A stretch of DNA of 64,000 bases from an uncultured virus (IMG/VR IMGVR_UViG_3300022822_000010) (IMGVR_UViG_3300022822_000010); one strand, 5' to 3'. Shown: positions 18,819 to 63,197, numbered from the stretch's first letter. The notes: generated by a model not told the origin, from the sequence alone. A program made the numbers and translations.

Positions 18819-18823
18819 AACTA

Positions 18824-18831
18824 TATTTATA
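18824..18831 (-). promoter_or_regulatory. T4-type late promoter
   Basis: Exact TATAAATA on the minus strand upstream of gp25. Confidence 0.7.
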
Positions 18832-18837
18832 CTCTTA

Positions 18838-22873: not shown

Positions 22874-22894
22874 TAATCGATAACCTTTTATGCT

Positions 22895-22902
22895 TATAAA
22901 TA
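22895..22902 (+). promoter_or_regulatory. T4-type late promoter
   Basis: Exact TATAAATA on the + strand upstream of the gp4 operon. Confidence 0.65.
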
Positions 22903-22931
22903 TAGTTATTATTATTTATAACAAAAGAAAG

Positions 22932-23126
22932 ATGATAAAATTGAATACAAGATGGCAAGACGTTAAAGAGTTCTTCGATTGGTCGGTTTGGAGAAAAGAA
23001 TTCAAGTGTTGGGTAGTTCACGGTCATTGTTGGGACAAAACAAATTCTAGTCGTATGAGTACTGGACAAATGAATAGATGTAAGCTATGCGATAAGTATG
23101 ACGCTGGCCCAGATGGATGGCACTAA
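22932..23126 (+). CDS. Small Cys/His-rich hypothetical protein
   Basis: C....GH.W...C..C pattern; follows a late promoter; start uncertain. Confidence 0.4.
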   Translation: MIKLNTRWQDVKEFFDWSVWRKEFKCWVVHGHCWDKTNSSRMSTGQMNRCKLCDKYDAGPDGWH

Positions 23127-23569
23127 TGGCATATCGAGGTAAGTATCATCCAAAAGATATAAAGAAGTATATGGGCGATCATACTAAAGTCGTCTATCGT
23201 TCTTTATGGGAAAGGAACACTTTTAGATGGCTTGATGATAATCCTGAGATAAGAGGTTGGAATAGTGAAGATGTGGTTATCAAGTATATTTGCGGTACTG
23301 ATGGAAAATATCATAGATATTTTATTGACATATACTTTGAGACTATTCATGGCAAGAAGTATCTGATAGAAATAAAGCCTAAGAAAGAGACTATGCCTCC
23401 AAAGGCACCGAAGCGTAAGACAAAAAGGTACATTAGTGAGCAATTGACTTACGTCAAAAATATATCTAAATGGAAGGCAGCTACAGAGTTTGCTAAAGAT
23501 AACGGTGTAAAGTTCTTTATATGGGATGAAACTATATTACGTTCAATGGGTATAAGCATTATTAAATAA
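23126..23569 (+). CDS. gp4: Head completion nuclease gp4
   Basis: MAYRGKYHP...KYMGD...YRSLWE...WNSE...HRYFID...IEIKP motifs. Confidence 0.92.
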   Translation: MAYRGKYHPKDIKKYMGDHTKVVYRSLWERNTFRWLDDNPEIRGWNSEDVVIKYICGTDGKYHRYFIDIYFETIHGKKYLIEIKPKKETMPPKAPKRKTKRYISEQLTYVKNISKWKAATEFAKDNGVKFFIWDETILRSMGISIIK

Positions 23570-23599
23570 CATACTACTCTGGCTGCGGCGGGGTTCCTT

Positions 23600-23628
23600 A
23601 TTATAACCTATTTACGACGAAAAGTCAA
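23600..23628 (-). promoter_or_regulatory. Sigma70-type promoter pointing antisense into gp4
   Basis: TTGACT-N17-TATAAT on the minus strand, same AAAGC context as the early promoter family. Confidence 0.65.
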
Positions 23629-23654
23629 GCTTTATTTTAATTAATTTAAGACGG

Positions 23655-23662
23655 TATAAATA
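23655..23662 (+). promoter_or_regulatory. T4-type late promoter
   Basis: Exact TATAAATA just upstream of the gp2 ATG. Confidence 0.7.
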
Positions 23663-23667
23663 CTTGT

Positions 23668-24264
23668 ATGGCACAATCATTATTCGATAAACTAGAAATA
23701 GAAGCTTTTAGAGCAGGTATTGCTCCAAGGACTGCTCAATCTCGAAAGTGGTTCCAAGATCGCATGAGAGATATGGGTAACATAAACCGTACTGCGTTAC
23801 TTAATGATGAGCGGTTACAGCAACGTCAACGTTTTGGTATTGGTAATCTTTACATGTACTTTTACGACCCAAAACACAGAAAGACTCTACCATACTATGA
23901 CTCCTTTCCATTAACGATAATGGTTGGTCCAGCGAAAGGTGGTTTTTACGGGTTGAATATGCATTACCTACCGCCACCGCTTCGTGCTGTTTTGTTTGAT
24001 AAATTGCTACAAACTACTAACAACGAAAGAATGAATGAAACAACTAAGTTTAAGATAAATTATGCTTTGTTAAGTAGCGTCGCAGCTATGAAGTTTTTCC
24101 GACCTTGCTTCAAGCATTATTTGCGTGGACAAGTCGATTCTAAAATTGCGCTAATAGAACCAGCAGAATGGGAAGTTGCTATGTTTATGCCTACCCAACA
24201 ATTCAATAAAGCTAATGACCGAAAGGTCTGGGCTGATTCAAGAAAAATGGCTAAGAAAAAATGA
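23668..24264 (+). CDS. gp2: DNA end protector gp2
   Basis: YFYDPKHRKTLPYYDSFPL...GLNMHYLPP..R motif. Confidence 0.92.
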   Translation: MAQSLFDKLEIEAFRAGIAPRTAQSRKWFQDRMRDMGNINRTALLNDERLQQRQRFGIGNLYMYFYDPKHRKTLPYYDSFPLTIMVGPAKGGFYGLNMHYLPPPLRAVLFDKLLQTTNNERMNETTKFKINYALLSSVAAMKFFRPCFKHYLRGQVDSKIALIEPAEWEVAMFMPTQQFNKANDRKVWADSRKMAKKK

Positions 24265-24833
24265 GCATTGGTTTAGAGTTATTAAAAGCGAAATTGAGTT
24301 TCGGTGGAGGGCCTGCTGTATCGAATAGGTTTGATGTAGTTTTACCTTCTCCATACTTTAATCGCACCGACATATTTCTAGTTGAGTCGGCTACTTTGCC
24401 CGGAAGAAGTATATCAACTTCTGAGTTTACTACCAACCGTGAAACAATGAAGAACCCGTATACATTTATCGATGGTGAGGTGTCTATGACGTTTATTCTA
24501 GATAACCGATACACTATGAGAAAAGCATTCGATCGATGGATGAATGATGTACTTAACGTAGAAACGTATCAGCTAGGATACAAACACGGTAATAATGGCG
24601 ACGGGTATGCTAAGTCGATAACAGTAAAGCAACAAGACAAAAGATTGTTAACAGTATATCAGGTCGAGTTGCTAAATGCTTACCCTATCAGCATTTCAAA
24701 CATTGACTTATCAAATGAATCAGAGAACACCATAAGCAAATTAACAGTCGAGTTTGCTTATGATAAATACAGACCTATAGACACGCTTCTTGATAGCGCG
24801 ACCGACGAAGTTAGAGGCAGACTTGGAATATAA
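24261..24833 (+). CDS. gp54: Baseplate tail-tube initiator gp54-like (gp19 fold)
   Basis: NRFDV...ATLPGRSIST...LLNAYPISIS...LTVEFAY; synteny with gp2 and gp26. Confidence 0.7.
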   Translation: MSIGLELLKAKLSFGGGPAVSNRFDVVLPSPYFNRTDIFLVESATLPGRSISTSEFTTNRETMKNPYTFIDGEVSMTFILDNRYTMRKAFDRWMNDVLNVETYQLGYKHGNNGDGYAKSITVKQQDKRLLTVYQVELLNAYPISISNIDLSNESENTISKLTVEFAYDKYRPIDTLLDSATDEVRGRLGI

Positions 24834-24859
24834 CTTAATTAAATTAAAGGCGAAATGAG

Positions 24860-25561
24860 ATGGCATTACCCGTATTAAAAACACCTACATATGAATTCGC
24901 GATTCCCTCTACAGGAAAAATAGTGGAATATCGCCCATATACAGTAAAGGAAGAGAAAATTTTACTTTTAGCCAAGGAGACAAAAGACCCCAAAGCGATG
25001 TTGAGAGCATCACGAGATTTAATACGAGCCTGTACCTTTGAAAAGGTTTATACTAACTCTTTGACCATGTTTGACTTTGAGTTTATGTTTCTTCAGATTA
25101 GGGCTAAGTCAGTTGGCGAGACATCAGATATTCAAGTTGCTTGTACTAAATGTCAAGAGTATAATGACATAAACATCAACATAGATGAAGCTGAAGTAAA
25201 AGGCGATTTGAAGCGCGACATGAAGGTGATGATTGATGATAACGTCGGTATAGTTTTAAAGTTTCCAATGTTTAAATCAGCTGAAATGTTTGTAGGGGAA
25301 GAAGAAAGCGTTGACACGGTCTTGAACTTAATCGCATCTTGTATAGATTCCATATTTGATCAAGACTCGGTTTATCCCGCAAAAGAACAAACTGAAGAAG
25401 AACTAATTAAATTTGTCGAGAGTATTTCATCGTCGAAGTTTAAAGATATATCAGCAAAATTAGATGATCTACCTTCGGTGGCGCTTGATACTGTATTCGA
25501 TTGCGTACATTGTGAGCATAAGAACAAAGTTGAGATAAAAGGTCTTCAAAGTTTTTTTTAA
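24860..25561 (+). CDS. gp26: Baseplate hub assembly chaperone gp26
   Basis: MALPVL.TPTY...PSTG...YRPYTVKEEKILL, IRAKSVGE, two CxxC motifs, GLQSFF end. Confidence 0.88.
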   Translation: MALPVLKTPTYEFAIPSTGKIVEYRPYTVKEEKILLLAKETKDPKAMLRASRDLIRACTFEKVYTNSLTMFDFEFMFLQIRAKSVGETSDIQVACTKCQEYNDININIDEAEVKGDLKRDMKVMIDDNVGIVLKFPMFKSAEMFVGEEESVDTVLNLIASCIDSIFDQDSVYPAKEQTEEELIKFVESISSSKFKDISAKLDDLPSVALDTVFDCVHCEHKNKVEIKGLQSFF

Positions 25562-28281: not shown

Positions 28282-29184
28282 TTAGCTGTTCGCTAAATTA
28301 GAGAAGTATGACATAGTATCTTCGTCGTCGCTAGACTTCACTACATTCGCAGTCTCATTTTCGGCCTTAGCTTTCAATACTGGCGCTTCTTTGGGTTCAT
28401 CTAGTTCAATAGATTCTGCTGTAGTCATAGGTACTGCTGTTTGACCTAAAACTTGCTTCATTTTAGTCTCTAGCTCGGCATAAGATTTATAATTAGCTGG
28501 ATCTACGTAGTCCCCTAGTTTATAGAGTTTGTTAAATACTTCTTCAAGAGCAACTTCGTCGCCATCTAGAAACTCGCTAGGGGCAGCGAATACCGACGAA
28601 CCGTAATTAACCCAACCATCTACTTTACGAACCTTAATTTTAAACTCAGCGCCTTCCCATAAGTCGAATGGGTTCATAGGAGCGTCATCTGGAAACTCAG
28701 GCTGCATTACGTCCATGATCATGTCAAAGATTTTCTTACCATAAACATACTTGAAGATCTTGCCTTCGTTCTGAGGGTTAGCAGGGTCTGAGACTACATA
28801 GATGTTTGACGCGTAATGTAATCGTCGCTTCTGTCTACGCGCAGTTTCTTTATCTTCATCGCGACCAGTGTTCCATAGTAAGCTATTATGCTCAGAAACG
28901 GGGTCTTGCTTACCGATAGATGTTAAAGACTTTTCGATATACCATTTACCGCCGGGACCTTGAAAGCCGTGATCCCAATATTGTACCCAAGGAATATCTT
29001 CGCCTTCGGCAGCAGGGAGGAATCTAATTACAGCGTATGCGTTACCCGCTTTGTCGCGAGAGACTTTCCATTCTGCGTCATCAACAAAGGACTTCTTATC
29101 ACCGCTGCCGCCGACTTTCTCCGCAGCTTTAATTAGTTTGTCCATAGAGTTTGTGCGCGACTTCTTTAAATCTTTAAAAGACAT
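28282..29184 (-). CDS. gp32: Single-stranded DNA-binding protein gp32
   Basis: DKAGNAYAVIRFLPA, HGFQGPGGKWYIEKSL, YGKKIFD, NPFDLWEGA, acidic tail with MSYFSNLA. Confidence 0.95.
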   Translation of the reverse strand: MSFKDLKKSRTNSMDKLIKAAEKVGGSGDKKSFVDDAEWKVSRDKAGNAYAVIRFLPAAEGEDIPWVQYWDHGFQGPGGKWYIEKSLTSIGKQDPVSEHNSLLWNTGRDEDKETARRQKRRLHYASNIYVVSDPANPQNEGKIFKYVYGKKIFDMIMDVMQPEFPDDAPMNPFDLWEGAEFKIKVRKVDGWVNYGSSVFAAPSEFLDGDEVALEEVFNKLYKLGDYVDPANYKSYAELETKMKQVLGQTAVPMTTAESIELDEPKEAPVLKAKAENETANVVKSSDDEDTMSYFSNLANS

Positions 29185-41409: not shown

Positions 41410-42015
41410 TTACACCATCCATATTACATAATGGCACATAAACAATACACTAAACGCAGAAATAATTATTGGGATCGCGCCGAAAACTATACACAACCAC
41501 ATACCCATTACCCAATCTGACGCATCACTGAAGTTAGACATTATTGCGGCAACAGCCGCAGTAAACAAAAACATAGTAACGCCAGACCCAACAAGCTTGC
41601 CTGCTATATCCATTAAGTCCATATTACATCACCCAAGTAGTATAATAAATAACAGTACCCAATACCGCAGCCATATAGATTGGGCCAGAAAAATCTTTAG
41701 CTTTTGTATTTGGTAGTATGCGCTCACATACCCAAACTGTGAAAATATATATGGCTGATAAAATTATTACAGATTCCATATCAATTACTCCATATCTTAT
41801 AAAATAAAAATATTACAACGCCGGTTATAATAGTCAAACGCAAAATCTCTATTAAATCCATATTACATCACCCAAGTAGTATAATAAATAATGCCCAATG
41901 CTAAAAGCATATAGATGGGGCCAACAAGAATCTCAGCTTTCGTATTTGGTAGTAAGCACTCACATATCCAAGTAGTGAAATACAGTAACACGAACATAAT
42001 AAATACAGATTCCAT
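41410..42015 (-). CDS. Tandemly duplicated small membrane proteins (41410-41622, 41624-41779, 41781-41861, 41863-42015)
   Basis: Two MESV...LPNTKA...GPIYM...YYTTWVM paralogs, each followed by an MDL... hydrophobic ORF; joined by TAATATG/TGATATG. Confidence 0.65.
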
Positions 42016-45404: not shown

Positions 45405-45809
45405 TCATCCATTATATAGGTTATCCAGTAGTTTGGGATTAAACTCACGCTCAGTAAACATCATATAGAACTCACTCTTCCAATCATCGGGTTCCATCAC
45501 GTCATGAATATGCTGAATCGAATTAATTAAATTTACTTTATTCTCATCAAGTAAACCACTTGTAAAATCGGAAAAACCCGTTCTTTCCATTTCTGGTTTA
45601 TAATTCTGAACAAATGGTCCAGCACCACACGTCTTACCATCAATACCATTGTACACGCATAGCTTGAAAAACTCGTTGGATTTGGAAGATTTTTCGGTTT
45701 TATAATCTACTTCGGATTTTTGGCCTTGCTCTTCTAAATGAGTAGCAGCCAATAGCGCTATTTGCTCAAGCGTATAATCTTTTGGGTTGTATTGTCCTAG
45801 TGTAGCCAT
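45405..45809 (-). CDS. Hypothetical protein (paralog B1)
   Basis: MATLGQYNPKDYTLEQIALLAATHL, identical to the start of 46823-47227. Confidence 0.7.
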   Translation of the reverse strand: MATLGQYNPKDYTLEQIALLAATHLEEQGQKSEVDYKTEKSSKSNEFFKLCVYNGIDGKTCGAGPFVQNYKPEMERTGFSDFTSGLLDENKVNLINSIQHIHDVMEPDDWKSEFYMMFTEREFNPKLLDNLYNG

Positions 45810-45813
45810 GATA

Positions 45814-46245
45814 CTATTCCTCTTCTTCATTATTAAGGGTTTCGATAAAAGTCTTGAGAGATGTATACCCTCTTTTTCCTTTACAAAACGTCCAACCTAA
45901 TTCTACAGAGTACACATACGCCCACTCTTCTTCACACACTTCTTTTAGCGAACTAATTTTCCATCCGCCCTGATGAGTTTCGCCTCGGTCACGACCATAA
46001 GCCTTTGTCCATTTTTTACGTTCATCAGTATCTTCTAGATACTCTTCGAAGTCGTGTTGCTCTCCAATACATTGCCCAAGGGTACTTATATTACCGAGCG
46101 CGATAAGCTCACGGACTTTTTCTTCTGTGTCATAGTACTCAAAAAGAATAGCGCCGTTATGCTGAGGGTATCCATCCATATGGCAATAGATAACGTCATA
46201 TAAACCATTTTCGTTTAGAATTGCTATGTTAGATCTTGTGCTCAT
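45814..46245 (-). CDS. Conserved phage early protein (paralog A1)
   Basis: MSTRSNIAI...IYCHMDGYP...LIALGNISTL...YGRDRGE motif. Confidence 0.7.
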   Translation of the reverse strand: MSTRSNIAILNENGLYDVIYCHMDGYPQHNGAILFEYYDTEEKVRELIALGNISTLGQCIGEQHDFEEYLEDTDERKKWTKAYGRDRGETHQGGWKISSLKEVCEEEWAYVYSVELGWTFCKGKRGYTSLKTFIETLNNEEEE

Positions 46246-46822: not shown

Positions 46823-47227
46823 TTATTTATTCCCGTATAATTCATTAAGCGGCTGAACGTCATACCCCATTTTACTAAACATTTTATAGAATCTCTGTTC
46901 CCAATCTTCGATATGCGAATTATCATGTATTTGTTGGACTTCGCATATCATTTGGGTTCTTTTCCCGTCTAGATCGCCTGCTATAAACTGGCTATCAAAC
47001 AAAGATGATTCCATTTCTACGTCGTAATTCTGAACGAATGGGCCTGCTCCACAAGTTGTCCCGTTTGGGCCATTATACATACATATCTTTGAAATTCCTG
47101 AATGCGGAGGTAAGGCAGGGTTTTCAGCCTCGCTCTTCGCACCTTGCTCGTGTAAATGAGTAGCAGCCAACAGCGCTATTTGCTCAAGCGTATAATCTTT
47201 TGGGTTGTATTGTCCTAATGTAGCCAT
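46823..47227 (-). CDS. Hypothetical protein (paralog B2)
   Basis: Paralog of 45405-45809. Confidence 0.7.
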   Translation of the reverse strand: MATLGQYNPKDYTLEQIALLAATHLHEQGAKSEAENPALPPHSGISKICMYNGPNGTTCGAGPFVQNYDVEMESSLFDSQFIAGDLDGKRTQMICEVQQIHDNSHIEDWEQRFYKMFSKMGYDVQPLNELYGNK

Positions 47228-47241
47228 AATATTAAATCTCG

Positions 47242-47655
47242 CTATTTATCGTCAATTTTTGTTTTTAGTGATAAGAATTTGTTTTTATCTTCGCAGTAAA
47301 TCCAACCATAATCAGCAGCAAACGCATAAGAATAATCTTCTTTAGCGATATCTTCGATCTGAAGAACATTAAAGGATTCGTTATCTTTCTCCCCCCTATC
47401 GCGGCCATAGGCTCTTGTCCAAGTTACGCGTTCATCGTCGGCTTCATAACACAATCCGGCATAGTGTTGCTCTCCAATACACTCACCTAGAGTGCTAATG
47501 TTACCAAGTGATATTAACTCGCGCACCTTTTCTTCGGTATCGTAATGTTTAAAAAGAATAGCACCTGCATCGGATGGATAACCATCCCAATGAAGGTATA
47601 TGACATCGAATGAGCCATTTTTGTTTCGGATTGCTATGTTGGCGTTGGTAGACAT
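47242..47655 (-). CDS. Conserved phage early protein (paralog A2)
   Basis: MSTNANIAI...IYLHWDGYP...YGRDRGE; paralog of 45814-46245. Confidence 0.7.
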   Translation of the reverse strand: MSTNANIAIRNKNGSFDVIYLHWDGYPSDAGAILFKHYDTEEKVRELISLGNISTLGECIGEQHYAGLCYEADDERVTWTRAYGRDRGEKDNESFNVLQIEDIAKEDYSYAFAADYGWIYCEDKNKFLSLKTKIDDK

Positions 47656-47723
47656 AATGTATTCGCTCTTGATCAATTAAGTAACTATTATACCGTAATT
47701 CACTAGAGAAGGCAAGAGGTTTC

Positions 47724-54113: not shown

Positions 54114-54189
54114 TGGTGCTCAGTCAGGGAGTCAAACCCCGATTACCCGCTTAGAAGGCGGGTGTTTTGTTCAATTAAACTAACCAAGC
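54114..54189 (-). tRNA. tRNA-Arg(TCT), atypical D and T loops
   Basis: Cloverleaf; CCCGC-CTTCTAA-GCGGG; T-loop TTTGACT; encoded CCA. Confidence 0.8.
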
Positions 54190-54210
54190 GAAAACTTTTA
54201 AAAGATATTA

Positions 54211-54286
54211 GGGTAATCGACGGGGTTCGAACCCGCATAATCTTGATTCACAGTCAAGGGCATTACCTAATCTGTCAAAATTACCC
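54211..54286 (-). tRNA. tRNA-His(GTG), no encoded CCA
   Basis: CTTGA-CTGTGAA-TCAAG; GGTTCGAACC T arm; G-1:C73. Confidence 0.8.
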
Positions 54287-54306
54287 TAATAACTCTTTCT
54301 TTAAAA

Positions 54307-54382
54307 TGGCACGCCTAGCTGGATTCGAACCAACAACCGACCGCTTAGACAGCGGATGTTCTTCCAATTGAACTATAGGCGT
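54307..54382 (-). tRNA. tRNA-Arg(TCT) with G33
   Basis: CCGC-TGTCTAA-GCGG; normal D and T arms; CCA. Confidence 0.75.
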
Positions 54383-54401
54383 ATTACAAACTAACTTAAA
54401 A

Positions 54402-54478
54402 TGGTAGACCCGAAGAGATTCGAACTCTTAACCATCGGCTTAAAAGGCCGGTGCTCTAACCAATTGAGCTACGGGTCT
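54402..54478 (-). tRNA. tRNA-Lys(TTT)
   Basis: CGGC-CTTTTAA-GCCG; CCA. Confidence 0.92.
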
Positions 54479-54483
54479 ATAAA

Positions 54484-54561
54484 TGGTGCGCTGAAGAGGA
54501 CTCGAACCTCTGACACTCTGGGCTTCAACCAGATGCTCTACCAAAACTGAGCTACCAACGC
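54484..54561 (-). tRNA. tRNA-Phe(GAA)
   Basis: TCTGG-TTGAAGC-CCAGA; CCA. Confidence 0.9.
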
Positions 54562-54574
54562 ATGTTCTTTAAAA

Positions 54575-54650
54575 TGGCGCCACTGAGGGAATTCGAATCC
54601 CTAACCTTCACGCTGACAACGTGCTGCTCTACCAGTTGAGCTACAGCGGC
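54575..54650 (-). tRNA. tRNA-Asp(GTC)
   Basis: CACG-TTGTCAG-CGTG; G73; CCA. Confidence 0.9.
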
Positions 54651-54657
54651 AATAAAA

Positions 54658-54732
54658 TGGTGTCCCCTAGGAGAATCGAACTCCTGTTACTAGGATGAAA
54701 ACCTAGCGTCCTAACCGCTAGACGAAGGGGAC
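54658..54732 (-). tRNA. tRNA-Glu(TTC)
   Basis: CTAGG-TTTTCAT-CCTAG; GTCCCCTTCGTCTAG start; CCA. Confidence 0.92.
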
Positions 54733-54800
54733 GTACTAATTAAAAACCAAACGCCGCGCAAGTGGGCTAACCCTATCAGCATTGGTGCTGGTCTTTAAAA

Positions 54801-54875
54801 TGGTTGCGGGTGTGGGTAACGATCCCACTATTTTCGGCTTATGAGGCCGACGACTCGCCATTTGTCTTACCCGCA
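54801..54875 (-). tRNA. tRNA-Met(CAT), initiator-like
   Basis: TCGGC-CTCATAA-GCCGA; TGCGGG/CCCGCAACCA acceptor; atypical T-loop ATCGTTA. Confidence 0.8.
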
Positions 54876-54881
54876 TTAAAT

Positions 54882-54957
54882 TGGCTGGTGTAGTAGGCTT
54901 CGAACCTACAACCTTCCGGTTAACAGCCGGATGCTCTACCAATTGAGCTATACACCA
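54882..54957 (-). tRNA. tRNA-Asn(GTT)
   Basis: TCCGG-CTGTTAA-CCGGA; G73; CCA. Confidence 0.92.
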
Positions 54958-56660: not shown

Positions 56661-57248
56661 TCAATTAGAAAATACTTTCAATACTATGCGTTTTGTACGC
56701 CCTGAATCGAACTCTATAAAAGGGGCATACTTTAGAAGACGACTTTTTATATCAGGCCAAAGAATAGTATCATTGATATCTTTATCAACTCGCCCTATAA
56801 ACCCTAATAACTTATTCATGATCACAACGGTTTCAATGCCTATTTCTTCAGCCAAATACGCCTTCACGATAGGGGGCAGTTGCCCATTCTCGCTTTTGAA
56901 TAACTTATCGAATGACCCAAACTCTTCTTCTAGCTTCATGAGATCTTCTTCAAGTAAGTAACCAAGCGACTCATATCGCTTTAGCCACTCATCATACGTA
57001 TTTTCATCTTTGAGCATATCCCCAATCCAAGATGACCCGTTAACGAAGTGCGATACATAGAAATTTATAAGGCCTTGTCTATCGTTAAACTTTTTGCCTG
57101 CTTTGGCAAAAAAATACTTATCCCGCCGGTTCCAAAAAGATCGCTGCGTTACCCTCGTCTTAAAGTTATACTTGACAGCATCATAACTTTTTGTTTCGAA
57201 GTGAAGCTTCAGCGCACTGTAAATAGAGTATGAATCAAATGGTTCCAT
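56661..57248 (-). CDS. gp59: Helicase loader gp59
   Basis: YSALKLHF...YDAVKYN...F.NRRDKYFF...IETVVI...KYAPF motifs; adjacent to gp33. Confidence 0.9.
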   Translation of the reverse strand: MEPFDSYSIYSALKLHFETKSYDAVKYNFKTRVTQRSFWNRRDKYFFAKAGKKFNDRQGLINFYVSHFVNGSSWIGDMLKDENTYDEWLKRYESLGYLLEEDLMKLEEEFGSFDKLFKSENGQLPPIVKAYLAEEIGIETVVIMNKLLGFIGRVDKDINDTILWPDIKSRLLKYAPFIEFDSGRTKRIVLKVFSN

Positions 57249-57249: not shown

Positions 57250-57474
57250 TTAAATAGGAAGCGAATTCCCGCCTTTTATGTAATTTTTAGAAATGGCTTC
57301 AGCTTCGAGTTTATCTCTTACTGCGTTAGAAATTAGTTGGGACGTGCTTGAAGGGTCCGTATTAGTCTCTTCGCAAAGAGCTAATATAGCATCAATATAC
57401 CCCAACCCTTCATCTTTAACTTTACTCTCAACATTCATAGAGAAAGCTTTCTTAGATATAAATTCCGCAAGCAT
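57250..57474 (-). CDS. gp33: Late transcription coactivator gp33
   Basis: FSMNVE...YIDAIL..CEE...LIS...DKLEAEA...LPI pattern. Confidence 0.85.
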   Translation of the reverse strand: MLAEFISKKAFSMNVESKVKDEGLGYIDAILALCEETNTDPSSTSQLISNAVRDKLEAEAISKNYIKGGNSLPI

Positions 57475-57759
57475 CTAGATATTTTCTCCCGATTTAAAAT
57501 CAAATACATTCTCTGCTTTGAACGAGCGCCAGCCCATAGCTAAAGTATCGAATACAGGCACGACATTAGACTCTTTCATCGCCTTCGCTTTTTCTGGAGT
57601 TGGGTCAGGTTTCGGTTCATTTTTAGGAGCAAACTCAGCCGGGATTAACTTGCTGTTAAGCGTGCAAGTCATCACCCGCTTGTCGCCATTTACTTTAGTA
57701 AAAGAGACCACACAAGAACCCTTACGCAACTTCGAAACTAACTCATCTTTATTAAACAT
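57475..57759 (-). CDS. WYL_2/DUF2693-like SH3-fold protein
   Basis: VSFTKVNGDKRVMTCTL...VFD....GWRSF motif. Confidence 0.75.
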   Translation of the reverse strand: MFNKDELVSKLRKGSCVVSFTKVNGDKRVMTCTLNSKLIPAEFAPKNEPKPDPTPEKAKAMKESNVVPVFDTLAMGWRSFKAENVFDFKSGENI

Positions 57760-57791
57760 AATTATCTTCCTATTTATCAATTAAGTACCTA

Positions 57792-57995
57792 TTATACTAC
57801 CTTTTCATTTAAAAGTAAAGCTTTATTTACTTTTTTAAGCTTGGCCCCCGCACCAATTAACCCGTTATGAGAAGCCGACAGCGGACAATATGTGATGCCA
57901 GCTTTCCAGTACAAATCTAAGTCTTTACAATAATACAAACCCTTATCTATTTCTTCAGAAGAATGATACGAGAATGCTAAATGCCTGTTATTCAA
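57792..57995 (-). CDS. Hypothetical protein
   Basis: Coupled ORF whose 3' end contains an early promoter. Confidence 0.45.
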   Translation of the reverse strand: MNNRHLAFSYHSSEEIDKGLYYCKDLDLYWKAGITYCPLSASHNGLIGAGAKLKKVNKALLLNEKVV

Positions 57996-58180
57996 AATAT
58001 GTTACCCCCAAATTTTAGTTGTTTATCTTCACGAGCTAGTCGGTCAACTTCGTAAGTTGACAGAGTACCCTCTATCACCGCCACCCGATAATGAAACTGC
58101 TCTTCAGTAATATGAGCCTTCATAAATAAGTCTATTAGATCTTCCATACCTCGGGCGATTTTGTTATCTGATTCGATCAT
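57992..58180 (-). CDS. Small protein ending in LKFGGNIF, the same C-terminus as the Alt-like ART
   Basis: AGGA RBS; direct comparison with 59015-60838. Confidence 0.65.
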   Translation of the reverse strand: MIESDNKIARGMEDLIDLFMKAHITEEQFHYRVAVIEGTLSTYEVDRLAREDKQLKFGGNIF

Positions 58181-58189
58181 GAGTTTTCC

Positions 58190-58444
58190 TTAGTTCCAAT
58201 CGTTATCGCGGCCAACGGTTTCTTGATGAGCATCACCATAAAACTCTTTAGCATAAGCCGACGAGTCTGTGTAATGATTATAATTCTCATCCATCTTATC
58301 GAGCATCTTATCTATCTTCTTTGTTTCGCGGCGACTATGAGCTTTCGAAGCTTCAACGCCGGTCTTATTAGCAAGGCGCTCTTTAAACACTATGCGGTTA
58401 TCTAATTTCTTCGCTACTTTCGCAATCATTTCTAGTCTATTCAT
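58190..58444 (-). CDS. Hypothetical protein
   Basis: First ORF after tandem early promoters. Confidence 0.6.
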   Translation of the reverse strand: MNRLEMIAKVAKKLDNRIVFKERLANKTGVEASKAHSRRETKKIDKMLDKMDENYNHYTDSSAYAKEFYGDAHQETVGRDNDWN

Positions 58445-58704
58445 ATATTTTTCTCTTCTCTAGTTAAGTAGTAATTATACGCTTATTTGTTAATAAAGTA
58501 AAGCTTTTTCTTAGACCGATTAGTTATAATAAACTAACTTATTATCTAATGTTTATCGCTTGTGTTTCGATCAATTAAGCATTAATTATACGCGAGTTAA
58601 CGCATAAAGTAAAGATATTTCTTATACCGTTTTGTACTAAAAAACTTAGTTTTTATATCTACCTAGAATAAGGTAGGTTTACCCCCTGAATAGAGGGTAT
58701 TTAG

Positions 58705-58974
58705 TTACGCACCACCAAAAAGAAAAGTCGTCGCCATCACAATCCCTGTGCTACAAATAGTTATACCAATCCACTGAACCGCTTTGGCTACTAGTTTCTG
58801 ATTAACCATTTCTATTTCTAAGTCGCGTAGTCGCGTAGGCATGTCGCTCATTTGATCCAGAAGTATAGTCATCCTATCAATCCCCCGCTCTAGATGAGTC
58901 ACCATACCCGCTAACCTATCTTCGTTGCTCTCAAGCCTGCGAAGCCGCTCTGTTACATCTCGTTCATCGCTCAT
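58705..58974 (-). CDS. Coiled-coil protein with a C-terminal TM helix
   Basis: Heptad pattern and hydrophobic C-terminus; late-promoter-like CTAAATA upstream. Confidence 0.6.
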   Translation of the reverse strand: MSDERDVTERLRRLESNEDRLAGMVTHLERGIDRMTILLDQMSDMPTRLRDLEIEMVNQKLVAKAVQWIGITICSTGIVMATTFLFGGA

Positions 58975-59014
58975 CGCGCTTTCGCCCCTTTACACACTTA
59001 CCCTATATTTAGCT

Positions 59015-60838
59015 TTAGAATATATTGCCTCCAAATTTTAGGTCGCGGTCAGCTTTTTCTTCTTTGCTCAAACTATCATAATAGTCACTATACGATTTAT
59101 CATCTTTTAATCTTTTACCCTTAGACCTAGATGACTCACTAAGGAAATCACTCAGAAACTTCGCTCTTTCTAGTTCATTATTTTCTTCTTTGATATTCAG
59201 TTCTCCGCTTCCATCAATCACAACATACTCAATCCCGATATCCCATCCGTCTTTATCACTTTTCTGATAAGCATGAAAGTTTATAGGAGTCATGAGGGTC
59301 CCGCGTGACACTATAATCTCTTGCTCAGTTCTGTGAGATGAGAGATTGCCGGGCATCACGACTTTTATTTTTTTAAAATCTTGTCTGGTATATATAAACA
59401 AACTAGCTTGTTCTATCCAAAATGGCGCGTTTGGGTTGTTATACTCGTCCCAAGGGTTTTCAGGTATAAATTTGCTCTTACTAGTTTTCACCATGTGTTC
59501 CATCATCTCAGACCCGCTAGTTGTCTGAAAAACTTTATTACCATCTATCTCTGTTGCTCCATTCATTACAACATTATCCATATCTCTCTGATCAAATTTC
59601 CCGAATTGAGCAGCAACTCTCAACTCTGTAGAGAACGAAGTGTAACTGGGTAGAGCGGTAATCGAGTCTGAAAATATACGTTTCAATGTAACTCCATGCT
59701 CATTCCCATATCTCGCATCAAGCCCCATCCCTCGATAGATAAATCCACGATACCCATCAAGATTATGGCCGTGCTTTTTAAAAGTCATATCAAGACCTTC
59801 TAGTACTTTAACACCTTCTTCCGCAGCAGCTCCAGTTTCTTGTCCTTTCATAACTCTTCTAGCGGCATTATAGCCGTTACCCGTAAAGAACTTTAATGCT
59901 TGAACACTATCTCTTTCGCCAAAATCGATAGGAGTATGAAGCTCTTCCGTCTCGACGAACATTCTACTAACTTCGTGCGAGAAGTTTGCAGCGAGTTCGT
60001 TCTTGCTTCCAAAACCGCTAGCATTTGAGTCATATTTCAGCCATTTACGTCGCATCTCAAGAGGAGCCGTTCTGGTGACAATAGGCTGTAATCTTCTGAG
60101 TTCTCTATTCTCTTCGGTCTCAACCCCGGGAAAAAATAAAGTCGAAAGATCGAGCGTCAACTTTTTACTTAATTGCTTTTCTTTCTTCTTGTGGTCAACA
60201 ACAGATGTGACAAAGTCTGCATTGGTTGATAAACCTTGGAAAGTCATCGATACATCAAGCTTTGAGAATTTTGAGAAGACGTTTTTGAATACCACACTTT
60301 GAGGTTTAGTTTTTACGTGAGCAAACACTATAGCGCCACCGTTAGAGTTATCTGCTGATAAGTCAGCAGAGTCTACGCTCATTACGCTTTTCAAAGAAGA
60401 CCTTTTGAATGCTCGTAGTATAAGTCTACTGTACTTAGCAAATTTTGGCTCAAGGAATATCATTAACCCCTCGGGCTTATTGTCGCCGTAATGACGATCG
60501 ACTGCTTTGATAACCATACTGATAAAGGATGTAGGTTTTTTTATAGTTTTCAGCGTTGTATGTATTCTCCCTCTCAAACCATTATCTGGATCGACGGGGT
60601 GGATCGTAACAGATTGAGCATTTCTACCTATTCGAACATCGTGAGCGTGCCAGCGATTCTCAAATCTTATTAGAAAGTATTCAGTAGTGGAACTCGATGA
60701 TGGGTAATATCCAACATAATATTGCCGAGAAGCTGTCCACTTTTTTTCGAGTACGGGACCCGAGCCGATCAAAACGTCGCCGACGCTATCGAGTACTTCG
60801 AGTAATAATTGGTTTTCATTAAGTATTTCTTGCGACAT
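59015..60838 (-). CDS. alt: Alt-like NAD:protein mono-ADP-ribosyltransferase (probably virion-packaged)
   Basis: IYRG, YTSFST and EQE (R-S-ExE) catalytic motifs; N-terminal LLLE resembling a gp21 cleavage site; late promoter at 60871-60878. Confidence 0.75.
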   Translation of the reverse strand: MSQEILNENQLLLEVLDSVGDVLIGSGPVLEKKWTASRQYYVGYYPSSSSTTEYFLIRFENRWHAHDVRIGRNAQSVTIHPVDPDNGLRGRIHTTLKTIKKPTSFISMVIKAVDRHYGDNKPEGLMIFLEPKFAKYSRLILRAFKRSSLKSVMSVDSADLSADNSNGGAIVFAHVKTKPQSVVFKNVFSKFSKLDVSMTFQGLSTNADFVTSVVDHKKKEKQLSKKLTLDLSTLFFPGVETEENRELRRLQPIVTRTAPLEMRRKWLKYDSNASGFGSKNELAANFSHEVSRMFVETEELHTPIDFGERDSVQALKFFTGNGYNAARRVMKGQETGAAAEEGVKVLEGLDMTFKKHGHNLDGYRGFIYRGMGLDARYGNEHGVTLKRIFSDSITALPSYTSFSTELRVAAQFGKFDQRDMDNVVMNGATEIDGNKVFQTTSGSEMMEHMVKTSKSKFIPENPWDEYNNPNAPFWIEQASLFIYTRQDFKKIKVVMPGNLSSHRTEQEIIVSRGTLMTPINFHAYQKSDKDGWDIGIEYVVIDGSGELNIKEENNELERAKFLSDFLSESSRSKGKRLKDDKSYSDYYDSLSKEEKADRDLKFGGNIF

Positions 60839-61664
60839 GTATAAATTCTCTTAAGGTTTGTTCAATCTTATATTTATAAGCGACTAATTTTTTAGCATAT
60901 CCATCATAACCTATTAATTGACCTAGGATACAAGCATTAGTATCTGTATCGCCTCCAAGTTGAATAATCCCTAGTATTGATTCTTCATAGTCAGAAGAGT
61001 AAAGATCTAGCGCATTGTTCCAAGACCCCTCACAAAAACCCGTAACGGTTCTGTTATTGTTGCTTGTTCTATAGTGTTCTATAGGGGTACTTTCGCCCTT
61101 GTAAATACTCTCTAACATTCTACCCATAAAATACGCGCTCTCATAAGCGATAGTACCGTGACTAACATCAACGACTCGCTTGTAATAACGCTCTTTATCT
61201 TTATTTTTAATTTGGTAAATAGACCATAGAGCGTAAGGCGCAAGCTTCATTAATATACCATTACCGCCAACATTCTCTTCAGGAAAATATAACCCGTTTT
61301 CAGACCAACCCTTGTATGCGTCAAAAGTCGCGTGACCTATATCGAAGCATACATTATTTGGGCAGAATTCACCCATATCAATGTAATCGCCCATAATATT
61401 TGCTTGAGCGTATTCATCAAACCCCTTCTCATTAATAAACGACCGCATAGCTAACGTCATCAGAATAGTATCATCGGTAACGCTACCAAACTTATGCCCA
61501 AATACATTTGTTGGGTTATCTCTTTGCACATCTTCAAAACTGGATAACAAAGGTATATTTTGTGCTGCTTTGAACTCGTAACAGGACCCGTACATGTCCC
61601 CGACAACACCACCCCAGAAGGACCGTTCAAAGTTATCATCTATTTCGTTAGTTCCAATTATCAT
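60819..61664 (-). CDS. ADP-ribosylglycohydrolase (DraG/ARH family)
   Basis: GDMYGSCYEF, TDDT, GNGILM, GGDTDTNA motifs; ATG overlaps the gp52 stop. Confidence 0.9.
   Translation of the reverse strand: MIIGTNEIDDNFERSFWGGVVGDMYGSCYEFKAAQNIPLLSSFEDVQRDNPTNVFGHKFGSVTDDTILMTLAMRSFINEKGFDEYAQANIMGDYIDMGEFCPNNVCFDIGHATFDAYKGWSENGLYFPEENVGGNGILMKLAPYALWSIYQIKNKDKERYYKRVVDVSHGTIAYESAYFMGRMLESIYKGESTPIEHYRTSNNNRTVTGFCEGSWNNALDLYSSDYEESILGIIQLGGDTDTNACILGQLIGYDGYAKKLVAYKYKIEQTLREFIHVARNT
60871..60878 (-). promoter_or_regulatory. T4-type late promoter for the Alt-like gene, inside the ARH 3' end
   Basis: Exact TATAAATA about 33 nt upstream of ATG 60838. Confidence 0.7.
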
Positions 61665-62980
61665 TTTAGTTCCCCAAGATCTGTAGAAAATTGCTCTGCT
61701 GGATCCGTGGCCTCCCAATATTTAAAGTTAGCCTCTTCTTTCTTAATCTGATCGTTCAATGAATCGACCATTTCTTTAGTTAGATTAAGAATGTTTAATT
61801 TTAATAGTCGCTCGCAGTCTTCGTCAGTGACGAGTACCAGCGCATCATGTATTTGAGATATTATATTACTCTTGGTCATACCTAGGAAAACGATCTCGTC
61901 AGTCAACACCGCATTAATAAAGTCGCGCTTCTTCTGTAACCAATCGCATGTAGCAGCGGTTTCTTTTCGACGTAGATCAATACGAGCGCCAAGGATAGTA
62001 TTACGAAAATTAACAAAGTCTTTGATTAGCTCTCGTTCATCTTTATACTCTCTCAGTTTACCATCAAACCCTATGACAGTTAGATTCTCTGAGTGACTCT
62101 TCTCAAGCTTAAACTTAGCGATAACTTTGTCGTCGGTATTTAAAGCTTTGGCCGTAGTGTTTCGAAGCTTTACCTCAAATTGAAACCCAACAGATGAGCA
62201 CTGGTCTTCGTATGATATAATGTCTCCATCATCGTCGAGCTTATCTAATACTTTAACATAAGCTTCGCGATCATAGCCGTAAGGAATCTCTGTAATGATT
62301 ACTTTAGTACTTACTGGGCGCTTATATATTCCTCGACAAACAAACCTATCTGTAGTCTCATTATATATCGTTTTGCCTTTAAAGTCAGGAAACGATACAC
62401 CAAGCCGCTTTTTAATCTTACCAGTCTTTATATACTCTTTACAAGCAGCAATTAAAGCTTTTTCGGAACGGGGTAAAATGTTCGTAGCAAAACCAGTGGC
62501 AATACCCTTGGCGCCATTAGCTAGTACTAAGGGTATGACAGGAATATAAAACTTAGGAGGACTGTGTTCAGGGTCGTCGTGAATAGGCGCAAGATCAACG
62601 TCTTTTATATGTCGCTTAAAGTTAGCGTGAAGCTTTGTGTACACGTAACGAGCAGCGCCAGCAGCTTGTATTTGACGAGTACCGAACGAACCCCGACCCT
62701 CAACTAGACAAATGTTATTATTCCAAGCTGCGGCCATTAACTGACCTGCGCCAGCAGCCGAGGTCTCGCCATGATTATATCCGTAATCAGAAACCACACC
62801 CGATACCGCAGATACTTTCTTAAAGTTAGCAGAAGTATTTATTATAGAGCTGTATAGATAAAACCGTTGTACAGGCTTTAGTCCATCTATCATACTAGGA
62901 ATAGCACGAGACTCGATGGTGTACATAGCAAACTCGCGCATTTCGTTATTAGCGATCTGGCTCAGATTATACTCATTCAT
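61661..62980 (-). CDS. gp52: DNA topoisomerase II medium subunit gp52 (GyrA/ParC-like)
   Basis: RAIPSMIDGLKPVQR, YNHGE, AARY (catalytic Tyr), NGAKGIATGF motifs. Confidence 0.95.
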   Translation of the reverse strand: MNEYNLSQIANNEMREFAMYTIESRAIPSMIDGLKPVQRFYLYSSIINTSANFKKVSAVSGVVSDYGYNHGETSAAGAGQLMAAAWNNNICLVEGRGSFGTRQIQAAGAARYVYTKLHANFKRHIKDVDLAPIHDDPEHSPPKFYIPVIPLVLANGAKGIATGFATNILPRSEKALIAACKEYIKTGKIKKRLGVSFPDFKGKTIYNETTDRFVCRGIYKRPVSTKVIITEIPYGYDREAYVKVLDKLDDDGDIISYEDQCSSVGFQFEVKLRNTTAKALNTDDKVIAKFKLEKSHSENLTVIGFDGKLREYKDERELIKDFVNFRNTILGARIDLRRKETAATCDWLQKKRDFINAVLTDEIVFLGMTKSNIISQIHDALVLVTDEDCERLLKLNILNLTKEMVDSLNDQIKKEEANFKYWEATDPAEQFSTDLGELK

Positions 62981-63011
62981 ATATTACTTCTCTTCGTCAA
63001 TTAAGTACCTA

Positions 63012-63197
63012 TTATACTATACCTATCCCTAGAAGTAAAGCTTTTTTTTCTTCTTCGGTGGTATCAGGGTCTCTAATGATTCTCATCATAGGATTAAACA
63101 AAGATTTGCCTTTGCCGGTGCCTGCGCTTATCGTATAGATTTCACCAACCTTCACACCTCCCTTGGTGGGTTCAAGATGACCAAATATGTCTTGCAT
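63012..63197 (-). CDS. Small protein carrying a gp41/DnaB-like Walker-A segment
   Basis: TKGGVKVGEIYTISAGTGKGKSLF; only about 60 aa. Confidence 0.55.
   Translation of the reverse strand: MQDIFGHLEPTKGGVKVGEIYTISAGTGKGKSLFNPMMRIIRDPDTTEEEKKALLLGIGIV

Follow-up and report, generated by a model that had tools for sequence, protein, structure and literature searches.

The ADP-ribosyltransferase Alt of phage T4 is the standard textbook case of an enzyme packed in the phage head and injected. The head protease gp21 trims it at both ends, taking off 6 N-terminal residues at ITE-6 (PMC5694885) and, as documented by mass spectrometry, 63 C-terminal residues at LTE-619 (Ali et al. 2017, PMC5694885). 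In the passages of that report that deal with the C-terminal propeptide, its role is left open, with "controlling its activity" among the possibilities (PMC5694885). Short terminal elements that bring unrelated proteins to one place have been described elsewhere. With the T4 capsid targeting sequence (CTS), which is short and transferable, unrelated proteins are loaded into the head core (PMC9026906); on the internal proteins IPI-III it, too, is removed by gp21 after [LI]-x-E (PMC9026906). For the head protease gp245 of phage SPN3US, a 64-residue C-terminal propeptide was proposed to target the prohead core (PMC7411985). Finally, T4 gp43, gp55, and gp33 are described as unrelated proteins with interchangeable C-terminal tails and one clamp as receptor (PMC2988020).

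The window analyzed here, the whole stretch of 64,000 nucleotides (IMG/VR IMGVR_UViG_3300022822_000010), comes from an uncultured virus; the source is a salt-lake T4-like phage. Two of its minus-strand genes, one for a 607-aa Alt-like ADP-ribosyltransferase and one for a 62-aa protein, have the C-terminal octapeptide LKFGGNIF in common. Coordinates are collected in Table 1.

Table 1. Features of the locus (positions count from the first letter of the window)
Feature	Position	Strand	Basis or remark
62-aa gene	57992..58180	-	ORF
LKFGGNIF tail and TGA stop of the 62-aa gene	57992..58018	-	translation
84-aa ORF, first gene of the early unit	58190..58444	-	ends 9 nt before the 62-aa start
Sigma-70-like early promoter CTTTAC-N18-TATAAT, proximal copy	58474..58503	-	upstream of the 84-aa and 62-aa genes
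Sigma-70-like promoter of that type, distal copy	58585..58614	-	promoter-family search
89-aa ORF, directly downstream of the Alt-like gene	58705..58974	-	PHROG "hemolysin," weak (E 0.0065)
Alt-like ADP-ribosyltransferase gene, 607 aa	59015..60838	-	ORF; PHROG, hhalign, Foldseek
LKFGGNIF tail and TAA stop of the Alt-like gene	59015..59041	-	translation
C-terminal extension, residues 541-607	59018..59218	-	AF2, A2 alignment, site listing
ART catalytic domain, about residues 285-540	59219..59986	-	PHROG match 283-535; hhalign; AF2
N-terminal leader, residues 1-14 (MSQEILNENQLLLE)	60797..60838	-	A2 alignment
ADP-ribosylglycohydrolase (ARH) gene	60819..61718	-	Pfam PF03747 E 5e-28; phrog_6572
TATAAATA, T4 late-promoter consensus	60871..60878	-	in the 3′ end of the ARH gene

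Two genes with one C-terminal octapeptide

The reverse complement of 57992-58018 reads CTA AAA TTT GGG GGT AAC ATA TTT TGA, that is, LKFGGNIF and a stop, and closes the 62-aa ORF (57992-58180), whose C-terminal sequence is ...EDKQLKFGGNIF. That of 59015-59041 reads CTA AAA TTT GGA GGC AAT ATA TTC TAA, again LKFGGNIF and a stop, and closes the 607-aa ORF (59015-60838; ...ADRDLKFGGNIF). Translation of the two sites thus bears out the identical octapeptide that an earlier note on this DNA had claimed, and the codon differences are exactly those it listed: GGG/GGA, GGT/GGC, AAC/AAT, and TTT/TTC, with the stops TGA/TAA. Four of the eight third-codon positions have changed while all eight residues are kept, which points to old divergence under protein-level selection.

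Chance as the source of the identity can be excluded, because only 2 of the 940 stop-to-stop frames of at least 30 aa in the window end in FGGNIF, these two genes, and because among 129 non-overlapping window ORFs of at least 45 aa, which make 8256 pairs, only 2 pairs have a C-terminal suffix of more than three residues in common, of length 8 in both. The second of these pairs consists of tandem paralogues (41624-41779 and 41863-42015). Within the limits of detection of BLASTP, hhalign, and shuffle tests, our two proteins are as unrelated as the note had them. BLASTP aligned the enzyme with the 62-aa protein only over the last 20 residues and hhalign only over the last 12; with the last 12 residues removed, none of 18 shuffle tests, in which small-protein bodies were locally aligned with Alt C-terminal extensions, reached p<0.05.

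The tail is also kept beyond the window. The only homologue found of the 62-aa protein (P0002) is 72% identical to it, with the last 12 residues identical, so that the tail is the best-conserved part of the protein in this comparison. Eight relatives of the enzyme were found, down to 19% identity, all with K-[FYW]-[GN]-[GSH]...[FI] at or near the C-terminus. In the alignment of these eight with the window enzyme (A2, nine sequences), K601 is invariant in all nine and makes up one of only 25 invariant columns. Two of the relatives, P0006 and P0007, continue for 4 and 10 residues beyond the motif, and a free C-terminus is therefore not required. The idea that identity is maintained at the protein level accordingly holds for every relative found, one on the small-protein side and eight on the enzyme side.

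In both structure models the tail lies on a flexible, low-confidence end. The AF2 model of the 62-aa protein (mean pLDDT 76) has helices at residues 3-21, 26-37, and 40-57, then a free tail; residues 58-61, after the three helices, are at pLDDT <50. The "undescribed C-terminal docking signal" of the earlier note stands in part: the octapeptide behaves as a conserved short docking motif, but a C-terminal propeptide of T4 Alt was already in print. Our literature search found no published description of the motif or of its sharing with a second protein.

Further searches gave little. No near or protein match to the enzyme was present among 50,697 phage records, relatives sought in viral, metagenome, and genome contig collections were not found there, and an ESM Atlas search with the 62-aa protein returned no usable match. 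An exact 40-mer of the window was likewise missing from the metagenome contig collection. Scanning the viral contig collection for LKFGGNIF followed by a stop gave 0 loci. The relaxed pattern LKFGGxIF with a stop gave 4, all of which we attribute to chance: three lie in frames of 12-29 aa, and the fourth is internal to a methyltransferase-like frame with TGG instead of the stop. Contigs from three salt-lake metagenome runs, belonging to three studies, carry the stretch, which may itself derive from one of these runs; they are identical over both tails, and hence yield no population variation; no RNA run is among the sequencing runs listed as carrying it.

The Alt-like enzyme and its extension

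From its N-terminus, the enzyme has a leader, an N-terminal domain, an ART domain of the R-S-ExE type, and a C-terminal extension that is flexible. Its designation as an Alt-like ART agrees with matches to PHROG Alt families (E 4e-11 and 6e-10), with hhalign to T4 Alt (probability 96.9%, E 1.5e-10, enzyme residues 308-518), and with Foldseek. Pfam returned no family for it even at E up to 10, PF03496 (ADPrib_exo_Tox) included, which T4 Alt itself matches at 5.8e-36. The residues of the R-S-E clade are present as R369 (YRG), S401 (TSFS), and E505-x-E507 and are invariant in all nine A2 sequences. An AF2 model built from the nine-row alignment (mean pLDDT 68.7) has the ART fold, with Vis (4xzj, E 1.1e-7) and also Certhrax and C3 among the Foldseek matches in the PDB. 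The best matches in BFVD are full-length phage Alt models, consistent with the T4 Alt-type arrangement of an N-terminal domain plus ART; the first is Alt of Aeromonas phage phiAS5 (E 1.1e-17, 734 alignment columns for a 647-aa target).

The leader ends in an [LI]-x-E head-protease site of the T4 type. E14 is invariant in the family, and [LI]-x-E falls inside the first 14 residues in eight of the nine members. This leader resembles the MELITE leader of T4 Alt, which gp21 removes, and by analogy would be cleaved in the window phage as well; judging from its sequence, it may be a separate CTS-like N-terminal element.

The last ART strand of the model spans residues 531-540. The extension that follows is charged, has a pLDDT of 34-47 over residues 543-607, and contains the candidate [LI]-x-E sites IKE-551 and LSE-568, with E568 invariant. 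All nine family members have at least one [LI]-x-E in their last 75 residues, at 2.5 per 100 aa versus 0.9 in the bodies, although the motif is frequent in glutamate-rich sequence, which makes these candidate sites weak evidence. The upstream I/L-x-E site that the earlier note suggested agrees with the published T4 Alt cut at LTE-619, in the account given in PMC5694885, and would by extrapolation be used in the window phage.

How far does the likeness to T4 Alt go? Both proteins have an N-terminal [LI]-x-E leader, an N-terminal domain, an ART domain, and an extension, and in both the extension comes directly after the ART domain, with 63 residues in T4 and about 67 here. Since the T4 ART domain ends at 614 and the ART fold of the window enzyme near 540, the two extensions are positional equivalents. 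Both proteins also end in a conserved lysine-aromatic tail. All six T4-type Alts sampled (T4, ST0, KaAlpha, PM2, Berthold, and KFS-EC) end in P-x-K-F-[VIK]-x(1-2), and in T4 Alt this conserved KF tail is the end of the 63-residue piece that the head protease removes. A homologue search with T4 Alt gave at least 120 proteins, all at least 97% identical among the matches listed.

The differences are also clear. The T4-type tail is P-x-K-F-[VIK]-x, whereas that of the window family is K-[FYW]-[GN]-[GSH]-x-[FI]; the invariant proline two residues before the lysine in the T4-type tails is lacking in the window family. With only the lysine and an aromatic residue in common and the proline different, homology of the tails is not shown, and hhalign detected no similarity between the T4 and window extensions at the profile level. 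C-terminal cleavage is demonstrated in T4, whereas in the window phage we infer it. No other T4 ORF of at least 40 aa has a P-x-K-F tail, while the window phage has a second, unrelated carrier.

Expression signals and neighboring genes

The 62-aa gene was called early, and this is supported: it lies behind two copies of a sigma-70-like promoter whose family numbers 22 copies in the window versus 0.06 expected, all on the minus strand. For the 84-aa ORF between these promoters and the 62-aa gene, neither Pfam nor PHROG gave a family.

The case for a late enzyme gene is different. Its sole basis is the TATAAATA that sits 33 nt upstream of the Alt-like ATG. The window has 14 such octamers versus 10.3 expected, and a count of at least 14 arose in 17 of 100 shuffles; the number is thus not above chance, and the upstream copy is weak evidence. 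There is also an early-type promoter at 63011-63040 upstream of the enzyme, and no terminator was found between the two.

The ARH gene overlaps the start of the Alt-like gene by 20 nt. The 89-aa ORF on the other side has a hydrophobic C-terminal segment. No head genes (scaffold, protease, capsid, or portal) were found in the window.

Possible roles of the shared tail

We tentatively put forward, as a reading with a fair way still to go before it could be called probable, that LKFGGNIF is a docking tag within a cleavable C-terminal extension, acting before or during head assembly, and that the 62-aa protein is a co-cargo or competitor. Extension 541-607 would be the counterpart of the 63-residue propeptide of T4 Alt and would do its work in the cell late in infection, when the enzyme is still in precursor form. 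One can picture the tail tethering this precursor to part of the head core under assembly, whether the scaffold, the protease, or some other core protein; cleavage by the head protease at an [LI]-x-E farther upstream would next free the mature enzyme inside the capsid, from which it would be ejected into the next host. The three-helix 62-aa protein, bearing the same tag, would bind the same receptor, either as a second cargo or as a competitor that limits enzyme loading. What we infer here is the cleavage and the receptor, together with what the small protein does.

Two described systems are comparable, each with differences. The T4 CTS is N-terminal, of about 10 residues, and of unrelated sequence; the window motif is C-terminal and does not qualify as a CTS. 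In addition, in the part of PMC9026906 that treats targeting, T4 capsid targeting is demonstrated only for N-terminal sequences, which speaks against the docking tag. The SPN3US gp245 propeptide is of similar length, C-terminal, and removed on maturation (PMC7411985), but it belongs to another carrier protein, is likened here by description, and has a targeting role that is likewise only proposed. A complex prediction for enzyme residues 1-545 with the 62-aa protein, run without controls, scored 0.00 in two runs, which counts neither for nor against an interaction. The early-type promoters of the 62-aa gene fit head assembly poorly, except if its product is long-lived or the gene is expressed late as well.

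A further conjecture, which we regard as doubtful, is that T4-like phages have a second, C-terminal addressing system, in which a head-core receptor recognizes a short lysine-aromatic tail at the end of a cleavable extension, and that the 62-aa early protein is a dedicated gatekeeper to which the tag was transferred in the lineage of the window phage. Such a gatekeeper would occupy or compete for the receptor and in this way set how much of a toxin-like enzyme is loaded, or when. What is new in our data is that a conserved lysine-aromatic tail ends the extension in two distant Alt families and that one lineage puts an identical tail on an unrelated small protein; together, the two observations point to a modular tag with one receptor. 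If that were true, the tag would be a portable handle for the C-terminal loading of foreign proteins, and it would answer what the C-terminal propeptide of T4 Alt does. As a C-terminal loading signal, if it does work as one, the tag would be a counterpart to the N-terminal CTS, with which foreign proteins are already packed into T4 heads.

The tail might instead act in the newly infected cell, docking both proteins early on a conserved host protein such as RNA polymerase, a chaperone, or a translation factor. The injected enzyme would in this way be brought to its substrates, with the early small protein either pushing it off the site or sharing the site with it. Going by the promoters and the T4 analogy, the packaged enzyme and the early protein would occur together in the first minutes of infection, a tail on a flexible linker is typical for docking motifs, and the described targets of T4 Alt include RNA polymerase alpha among other proteins of the host (PMC9503650). 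We nevertheless find both the docking and the displacement or sharing rather unlikely. In T4 the C-terminal 63 residues are removed before ejection, as far as the account of processing goes (PMC5694885), which would leave the injected enzyme without its tail, and the tail varies across the family more than one would expect if it fitted a pocket of a host protein that is itself highly conserved.

Alternatively, the tail could bind the ART domain or a phage partner, for example the adjacent ARH, and keep the precursor harmless in the producing cell, with the 62-aa protein as a trans-acting copy that, for instance, switches off the injected enzyme. The 20-nt overlap of the ARH and enzyme genes would suit such control, as would the ART-ARH effector-immunity pairs known as solved structures, of which 8za7 is among the fold matches; the T4 authors, too, list control of activity as an open possibility (PMC5694885). 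Against this, the monomer model leaves the tail undocked (pLDDT 34-47, from a nine-row alignment), and T4-type phages keep the KF tail, yet the T4 annotation shows no ARH beside alt. Recombinant full-length T4 Alt is, moreover, active. We judge the control of activity by the tail, and the trans-acting role of the small protein with it, to be quite unlikely.

That the tail is a proteolysis tag, recognized by a host or phage protease that times the removal of both proteins, appears improbable. The end is C-terminal, largely non-polar (IF, YI, LI, AI), and in a flexible context, as such a tag might be, but in P0006 and P0007 the motif is followed by polar residues, and the invariant residues are the internal lysine and aromatic, not the terminal ones.

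The earlier note had also offered a clamp as a docking partner. Binding to the phage sliding clamp gp45 would give a hydrophobic C-terminal motif, encoded close to gp33 and gp59, the role that the interchangeable tails of the unrelated gp43, gp55, and gp33 have on one clamp in T4 (PMC2988020). The tails themselves argue otherwise. Those of T4 (ASLDFLFG, SLDFLYEAND, and TLDFLL) are hydrophobic and acidic, of the form S/T-L-D-F-L, and the marine relative, Pelagibacter phage HTVC008M, has SNLEDFF and SKLEYFMQ, with NLNFL... in its gp33. The basic, glycine-rich K-F-G-G-N-I-F, with its invariant lysine, glycines, and no acidic residue, does not fit (S/T)-L-[DE]-x-F. Nor does the KF tail of T4 Alt look like T4's own clamp motif, and gp33 of the window phage ends NYIKGGNSLPI, not KFGGNIF. 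With clamp tails of the L-[DE]-x-F type in both T4 and the marine relative, this option is disfavored and, in our estimation, highly improbable. We also considered the NYIKGGNSLPI tail as a variant of the motif; it aligns better with HTVC008M gp33 (NLNFLPKTATLPV), and this idea was given up.

A functionless relic of recombination or of partial duplication of the alt 3′ end is disfavored and scarcely credible, even though the T4 annotation traces alt.-1 and alt.-2 to an ancient duplication of the beginning of alt and tandem duplications also occur in the window: half of the synonymous positions have diverged with all eight residues kept, the small protein is best conserved in its tail, and the motif persists in enzyme relatives down to 19% identity.

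Candidates for a second carrier in T4 itself were also considered. The tail of Ndd, NFKFVLQAY, was set aside: Ndd orthologues keep NFKF[VIR]xQxY irrespective of the Alt tail in the phage concerned, so that there is no co-variation. So was alt.1, which has 62 aa and adjoins alt; it is unrelated to the window 62-aa protein and was found in only one of five other phages. Among the T4 head proteins gp20, gp21, gp22, gp23, gp24, gp67, gp68, and IPI-III, none has a similar tail. T4 modA.3 ends RKFGFYR.

A C-terminal octapeptide common to two proteins

The 607-aa Alt-like ADP-ribosyltransferase (ART) and the 62-aa protein end in the same octapeptide, LKFGGNIF. Both reverse complements agree with what the earlier note had read at codon level: all eight residues are identical, while four of the eight third-codon positions, all synonymous, and the stop codon differ. 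The C-terminal motif scan proposed there found FGGNIF at the end of only these two among 940 stop-to-stop frames of at least 30 aa in the window. Among 129 non-overlapping ORFs, only 2 of 8256 pairs have a C-terminal suffix of more than three residues in common, and the second pair consists of tandem paralogues (41624-41779 and 41863-42015). Chance does not explain the identity of the two tails. BLASTP aligned the enzyme with the 62-aa protein over the last 20 residues only and hhalign over the last 12; with those 12 cut off, 18 local alignments with shuffle controls gave no p value below 0.05. These comparisons detect no relationship between the two proteins beyond the tail, as had been proposed. 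The tandem paralogues are small and hydrophobic, with the common C-terminal octapeptide IYYTTWVM.

Coordinates of features in the window
Feature	Coordinates	Strand	Remarks
Baseplate and tail genes	12488-25561		PHROG/Pfam, T4-type
gp32	28282-29184		PHROG/Pfam, T4-type
gp59	56661-57248		PHROG/Pfam, T4-type
gp33	57250-57474		PHROG/Pfam, T4-type
Promoter copy upstream of WYL_2 gene	57791-57820	-	CTTTAC-N17/18-TATAAT
62-aa ORF	57992-58180	-	C-terminal end EDKQLKFGGNIF
LKFGGNIF and stop, 62-aa gene	57992-58018	-	reverse complement CTA AAA TTT GGG GGT AAC ATA TTT TGA
Promoter copies in spacer, upstream of 84-aa and 62-aa genes	58474-58503, 58585-58614	-	CTTTAC-N17/18-TATAAT
607-aa Alt-like ORF	59015-60838	-	C-terminal end ADRDLKFGGNIF
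LKFGGNIF and stop, Alt-like gene	59015-59041	-	reverse complement CTA AAA TTT GGA GGC AAT ATA TTC TAA
ADP-ribosylglycohydrolase (ARH)	60819-61718	-	Pfam PF03747, E 5e-28; 20-nt overlap with Alt-like gene start
Topoisomerase II subunit gp52	61661-62980		PHROG/Pfam, T4-type

A word-based search covering 5.8 billion proteins returned one homologue of the small protein (P0002, 60 aa, 72% identity, last 12 residues identical) and two of the enzyme (41-42% identity, both ending KKLKFGSSIF); an exhaustive HMMER search of 1.84 billion representatives gave eight proteins at E<=0.001, query included. Pooling both searches yields families of modest size, nine enzymes (the window protein and eight relatives) and two small proteins. 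The enzyme tails read LKFGGNIF (P0003, the window protein), LKFGSSIF (P0004, P0005), IKFGSNPF-HYDG (P0006), YKWGHNPF-TGDHIKQRKQ (P0007), PKFNGLI (P0008), EKFGSYI (P0009), EKYGSIF (P0010) and DKYNSAI (P0011). Across the nine-sequence alignment, in which identity to the query falls from 44% to 19%, K601 is among 25 invariant columns and the next residue is always aromatic; the linker ahead of the tail varies in length and carries many charged residues.

Both structure models were built on shallow alignments. The enzyme fold ends at strand 531-540, and residues 543-607 (pLDDT 34-47) form short helices only, with the tail not docked on the enzyme body; the small-protein model, from a two-row alignment, has helices at 3-21, 26-37 and 40-57, and pLDDT below 50 at residues 58-61. 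With ends of such low pLDDT, the tail is predicted to hang on a flexible end in both proteins. Short docking motifs are usually found on flexible ends.

The enzyme as an Alt homologue and its C-terminal extension

Pfam assigned the enzyme to no family, even at E 10. Residues 283-535 hit two PHROG families, both annotated "Alt-like RNA polymerase ADP-ribosyltransferase" (E 4e-11 and 6e-10), and the family profile aligns with the T4 Alt ART domain (probability 96.9%, E 1.5e-10). The AF2 model (mean pLDDT 68.7) matches the Vis, Certhrax and C3 ARTs in the PDB and full-length phage Alt models in BFVD, the best being Alt of Aeromonas phage phiAS5 (E 1.1e-17, 734 alignment columns, 647-aa target). 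The R-S-ExE catalytic residues R369, S401, E505 and E507 are invariant in the nine sequences. These lines of evidence uphold the first assignment of the protein as an Alt-like ART, and they therefore argue for a divergent yet full-length Alt homologue, a new member of the family.

According to excerpts of Ali et al. 2017 (PMC5694885), mass spectrometry showed T4 Alt to be shortened by six residues at ITE-6 and by 63 at its C-terminus, at LTE-619; excerpts of a 2022 review (PMC9026906) restate this processing. Because residue 614 is the last of the T4 ART domain, the propeptide is everything past this domain and the positional equivalent of enzyme residues 541-607 (67 residues). Both extensions also end in a lysine-aromatic tail. 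We translated six T4-type Alt C-termini, drawn from 30 phage records spread over the 1221 that matched: MPYKFVQG in T4 (L005, NC_000866 5455-7503) and, at loci L009-L013, VPFKFVQG (ST0), TPEKFVL (KaAlpha), IPEKFIN (PM2), MPQKFID (Berthold) and MPDKFKM (KFS-EC). All six fit P-x-K-F-[VIK]-x(1-2) at the C-terminus, and a lysine-aromatic tail is therefore conserved in classical Alt proteins too. This classical tail sits within the propeptide removed by gp21, the T4 head protease.

The pattern [LI]-x-E occurs in the first 14 residues of eight of the nine family members, with E14 invariant, and at least once in the last 75 residues of all nine (IKE-551 and LSE-568 in the window protein, E568 invariant). 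Such sites number 2.5 per 100 residues over the last 75 and 0.9 in the protein bodies; because the region is glutamate-rich, these are weak candidates for protease sites.

The earlier note called the tail undescribed. The T4 Alt C-terminal propeptide is published, but in the open-access full texts searched we found no paper that describes the conserved tail or reports it on a second protein. Elsewhere in T4, modA.3 (L014 13389-13859) ends RKFGFYR and Ndd (L017 32585-33040) ends NFKFVLQAY. The Ndd tail, considered as a counterpart of the Alt tail, is conserved in orthologues but shows no co-variation with that of Alt; the resemblance is probably coincidence.

Expression signals and possible roles of the tail

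Copies of the promoter family CTTTAC-N17/18-TATAAT number 22 in the window, where chance would give 0.06, and all are on the minus strand within 29858-63040; a consensus scan ranks the three tabulated copies as the top three of their region. Two of them lie in the spacer upstream, and the 62-aa gene therefore belongs to a sigma-70-type, presumably early, unit. Of the proposed pairing of a late enzyme with an early small gene, the early side is thus supported, whereas the Alt-like gene can be called late only tentatively. One copy of the T4 late-promoter consensus, TATAAATA, lies 33 nt upstream of its ATG, and by our reading several others lie just upstream of structural genes, but the octamer is not enriched (14 in the window versus 10.3 expected; 17 of 100 shuffles reach 14). 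The gene is also downstream of an early-type promoter (63011-63040), with no terminator detected in the stretch that separates them. The CTTTAC/TATAAT family marks the early region of the phage, and repeated promoter cores also occur on several separate contigs of the metagenome runs.

We tentatively favor the reading that the tail is a docking tag in a cleavable C-terminal extension. Placed at the end of that extension, the tag would act on the enzyme precursor in the late cell, tethering it most likely to some part of the assembling head core, whereupon the head protease would cut off the extension, a cleavage that we infer here. We imagine that the 62-aa protein, bearing the same tag, would bind the same receptor, as co-packaged cargo or competitor. 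The 64-residue C-terminal propeptide of the SPN3US head protease, proposed as a head-core targeting signal in the excerpts of PMC7411985, is a precedent. Weak points are the early-type promoters of the 62-aa gene and the tails of the two Alt families, which have only the lysine and an aromatic residue in common. A further weak point is that capsid targeting in T4 has been demonstrated only for N-terminal sequences (excerpts of PMC9026906). Both small proteins contain ITE (residues 24-26 in the window's 62-aa protein), a tripeptide cut in T4 Alt, which we record as an observation only.

It is unlikely that the tail docks both proteins on a host protein: the injected enzyme and the early protein would be present together, but in T4 the tail is removed before ejection. 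Control of enzyme activity by the extension, in cis or via a phage partner, the adjacent ARH for example, was raised by the T4 Alt authors (excerpts of PMC5694885), and ART-ARH immunity pairs lend it plausibility (8za7 is among the fold matches); with no cis docking in the enzyme model and no ARH gene annotated beside alt in T4, we regard it as rather improbable. A proteolysis tag has only a slim chance. A clamp, one of the receptors first suggested, is disfavored, and we give it very little credence: the T4 clamp tails (ASLDFLFG, SLDFLYEAND, TLDFLL) and those of Pelagibacter phage HTVC008M (SNLEDFF, SKLEYFMQ, NLNFL...) fit the hydrophobic and acidic character of known ones (excerpts of PMC2988020), whereas LKFGGNIF is basic and glycine-rich. 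A functionless relic is scarcely credible for so conserved a tail. The finding of the common tail extends a question still open in T4, the role of the Alt C-terminal propeptide, and makes it testable in that phage.

Genome setting

By its gene content, the window is part of a T4-like myophage genome whose head genes, gp43, gp45 and gp55 lie outside these 64 kb. Along the minus strand, gp52 is followed by ARH, the Alt-like gene and an ORF of 89 aa whose end is hydrophobic; past a spacer of 260 nt come an ORF of 84 aa, the 62-aa gene, an ORF of 67 aa, the gene of a WYL_2 protein, gp33 and gp59. The phage is distant from every sequenced phage. Neither the window, at nucleotide level, nor the enzyme, at protein level, has a match among 50,697 phage records. 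Identity of gp52 to those of Cronobacter and Aeromonas T4-like phages does not exceed 43.6%, and gp33 resembles cyanophage and Pelagibacter-phage gp33 at less than 40% identity. Window DNA is present in three salt-lake metagenome runs, one possibly its source.

The overlapping ART and ARH genes recall effector-immunity pairs; the ARH might shield the producing cell while the enzyme is being made, or undo the marks that the enzyme leaves. The window gp33 ends NYIKGGNSLPI and that of HTVC008M NLNFLPKTATLPV, both with a terminal [ST]-L-P-[IV] past the presumed clamp-binding element, where T4 gp33 stops at TLDFLL. The WYL_2 protein (57475-57780, an Sm-like SH3 barrel) adjoins gp33 where T4 has dsbA. 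A cassette of two genes is present twice in tandem (45405-46245 and 46823-47676), and the paired proteins are identical over long stretches (phrog_17693 and phrog_1987 families, of unknown function). Nine tRNA genes cluster at 54114-54957 on the minus strand (Arg-tct twice, His, Lys, Phe, Asp, Glu, Met, Asn). Among the baseplate genes lies a 2349-aa ORF (5389-12438; phrog_358, function unknown), with TATAAATA just upstream at 12478-12485.
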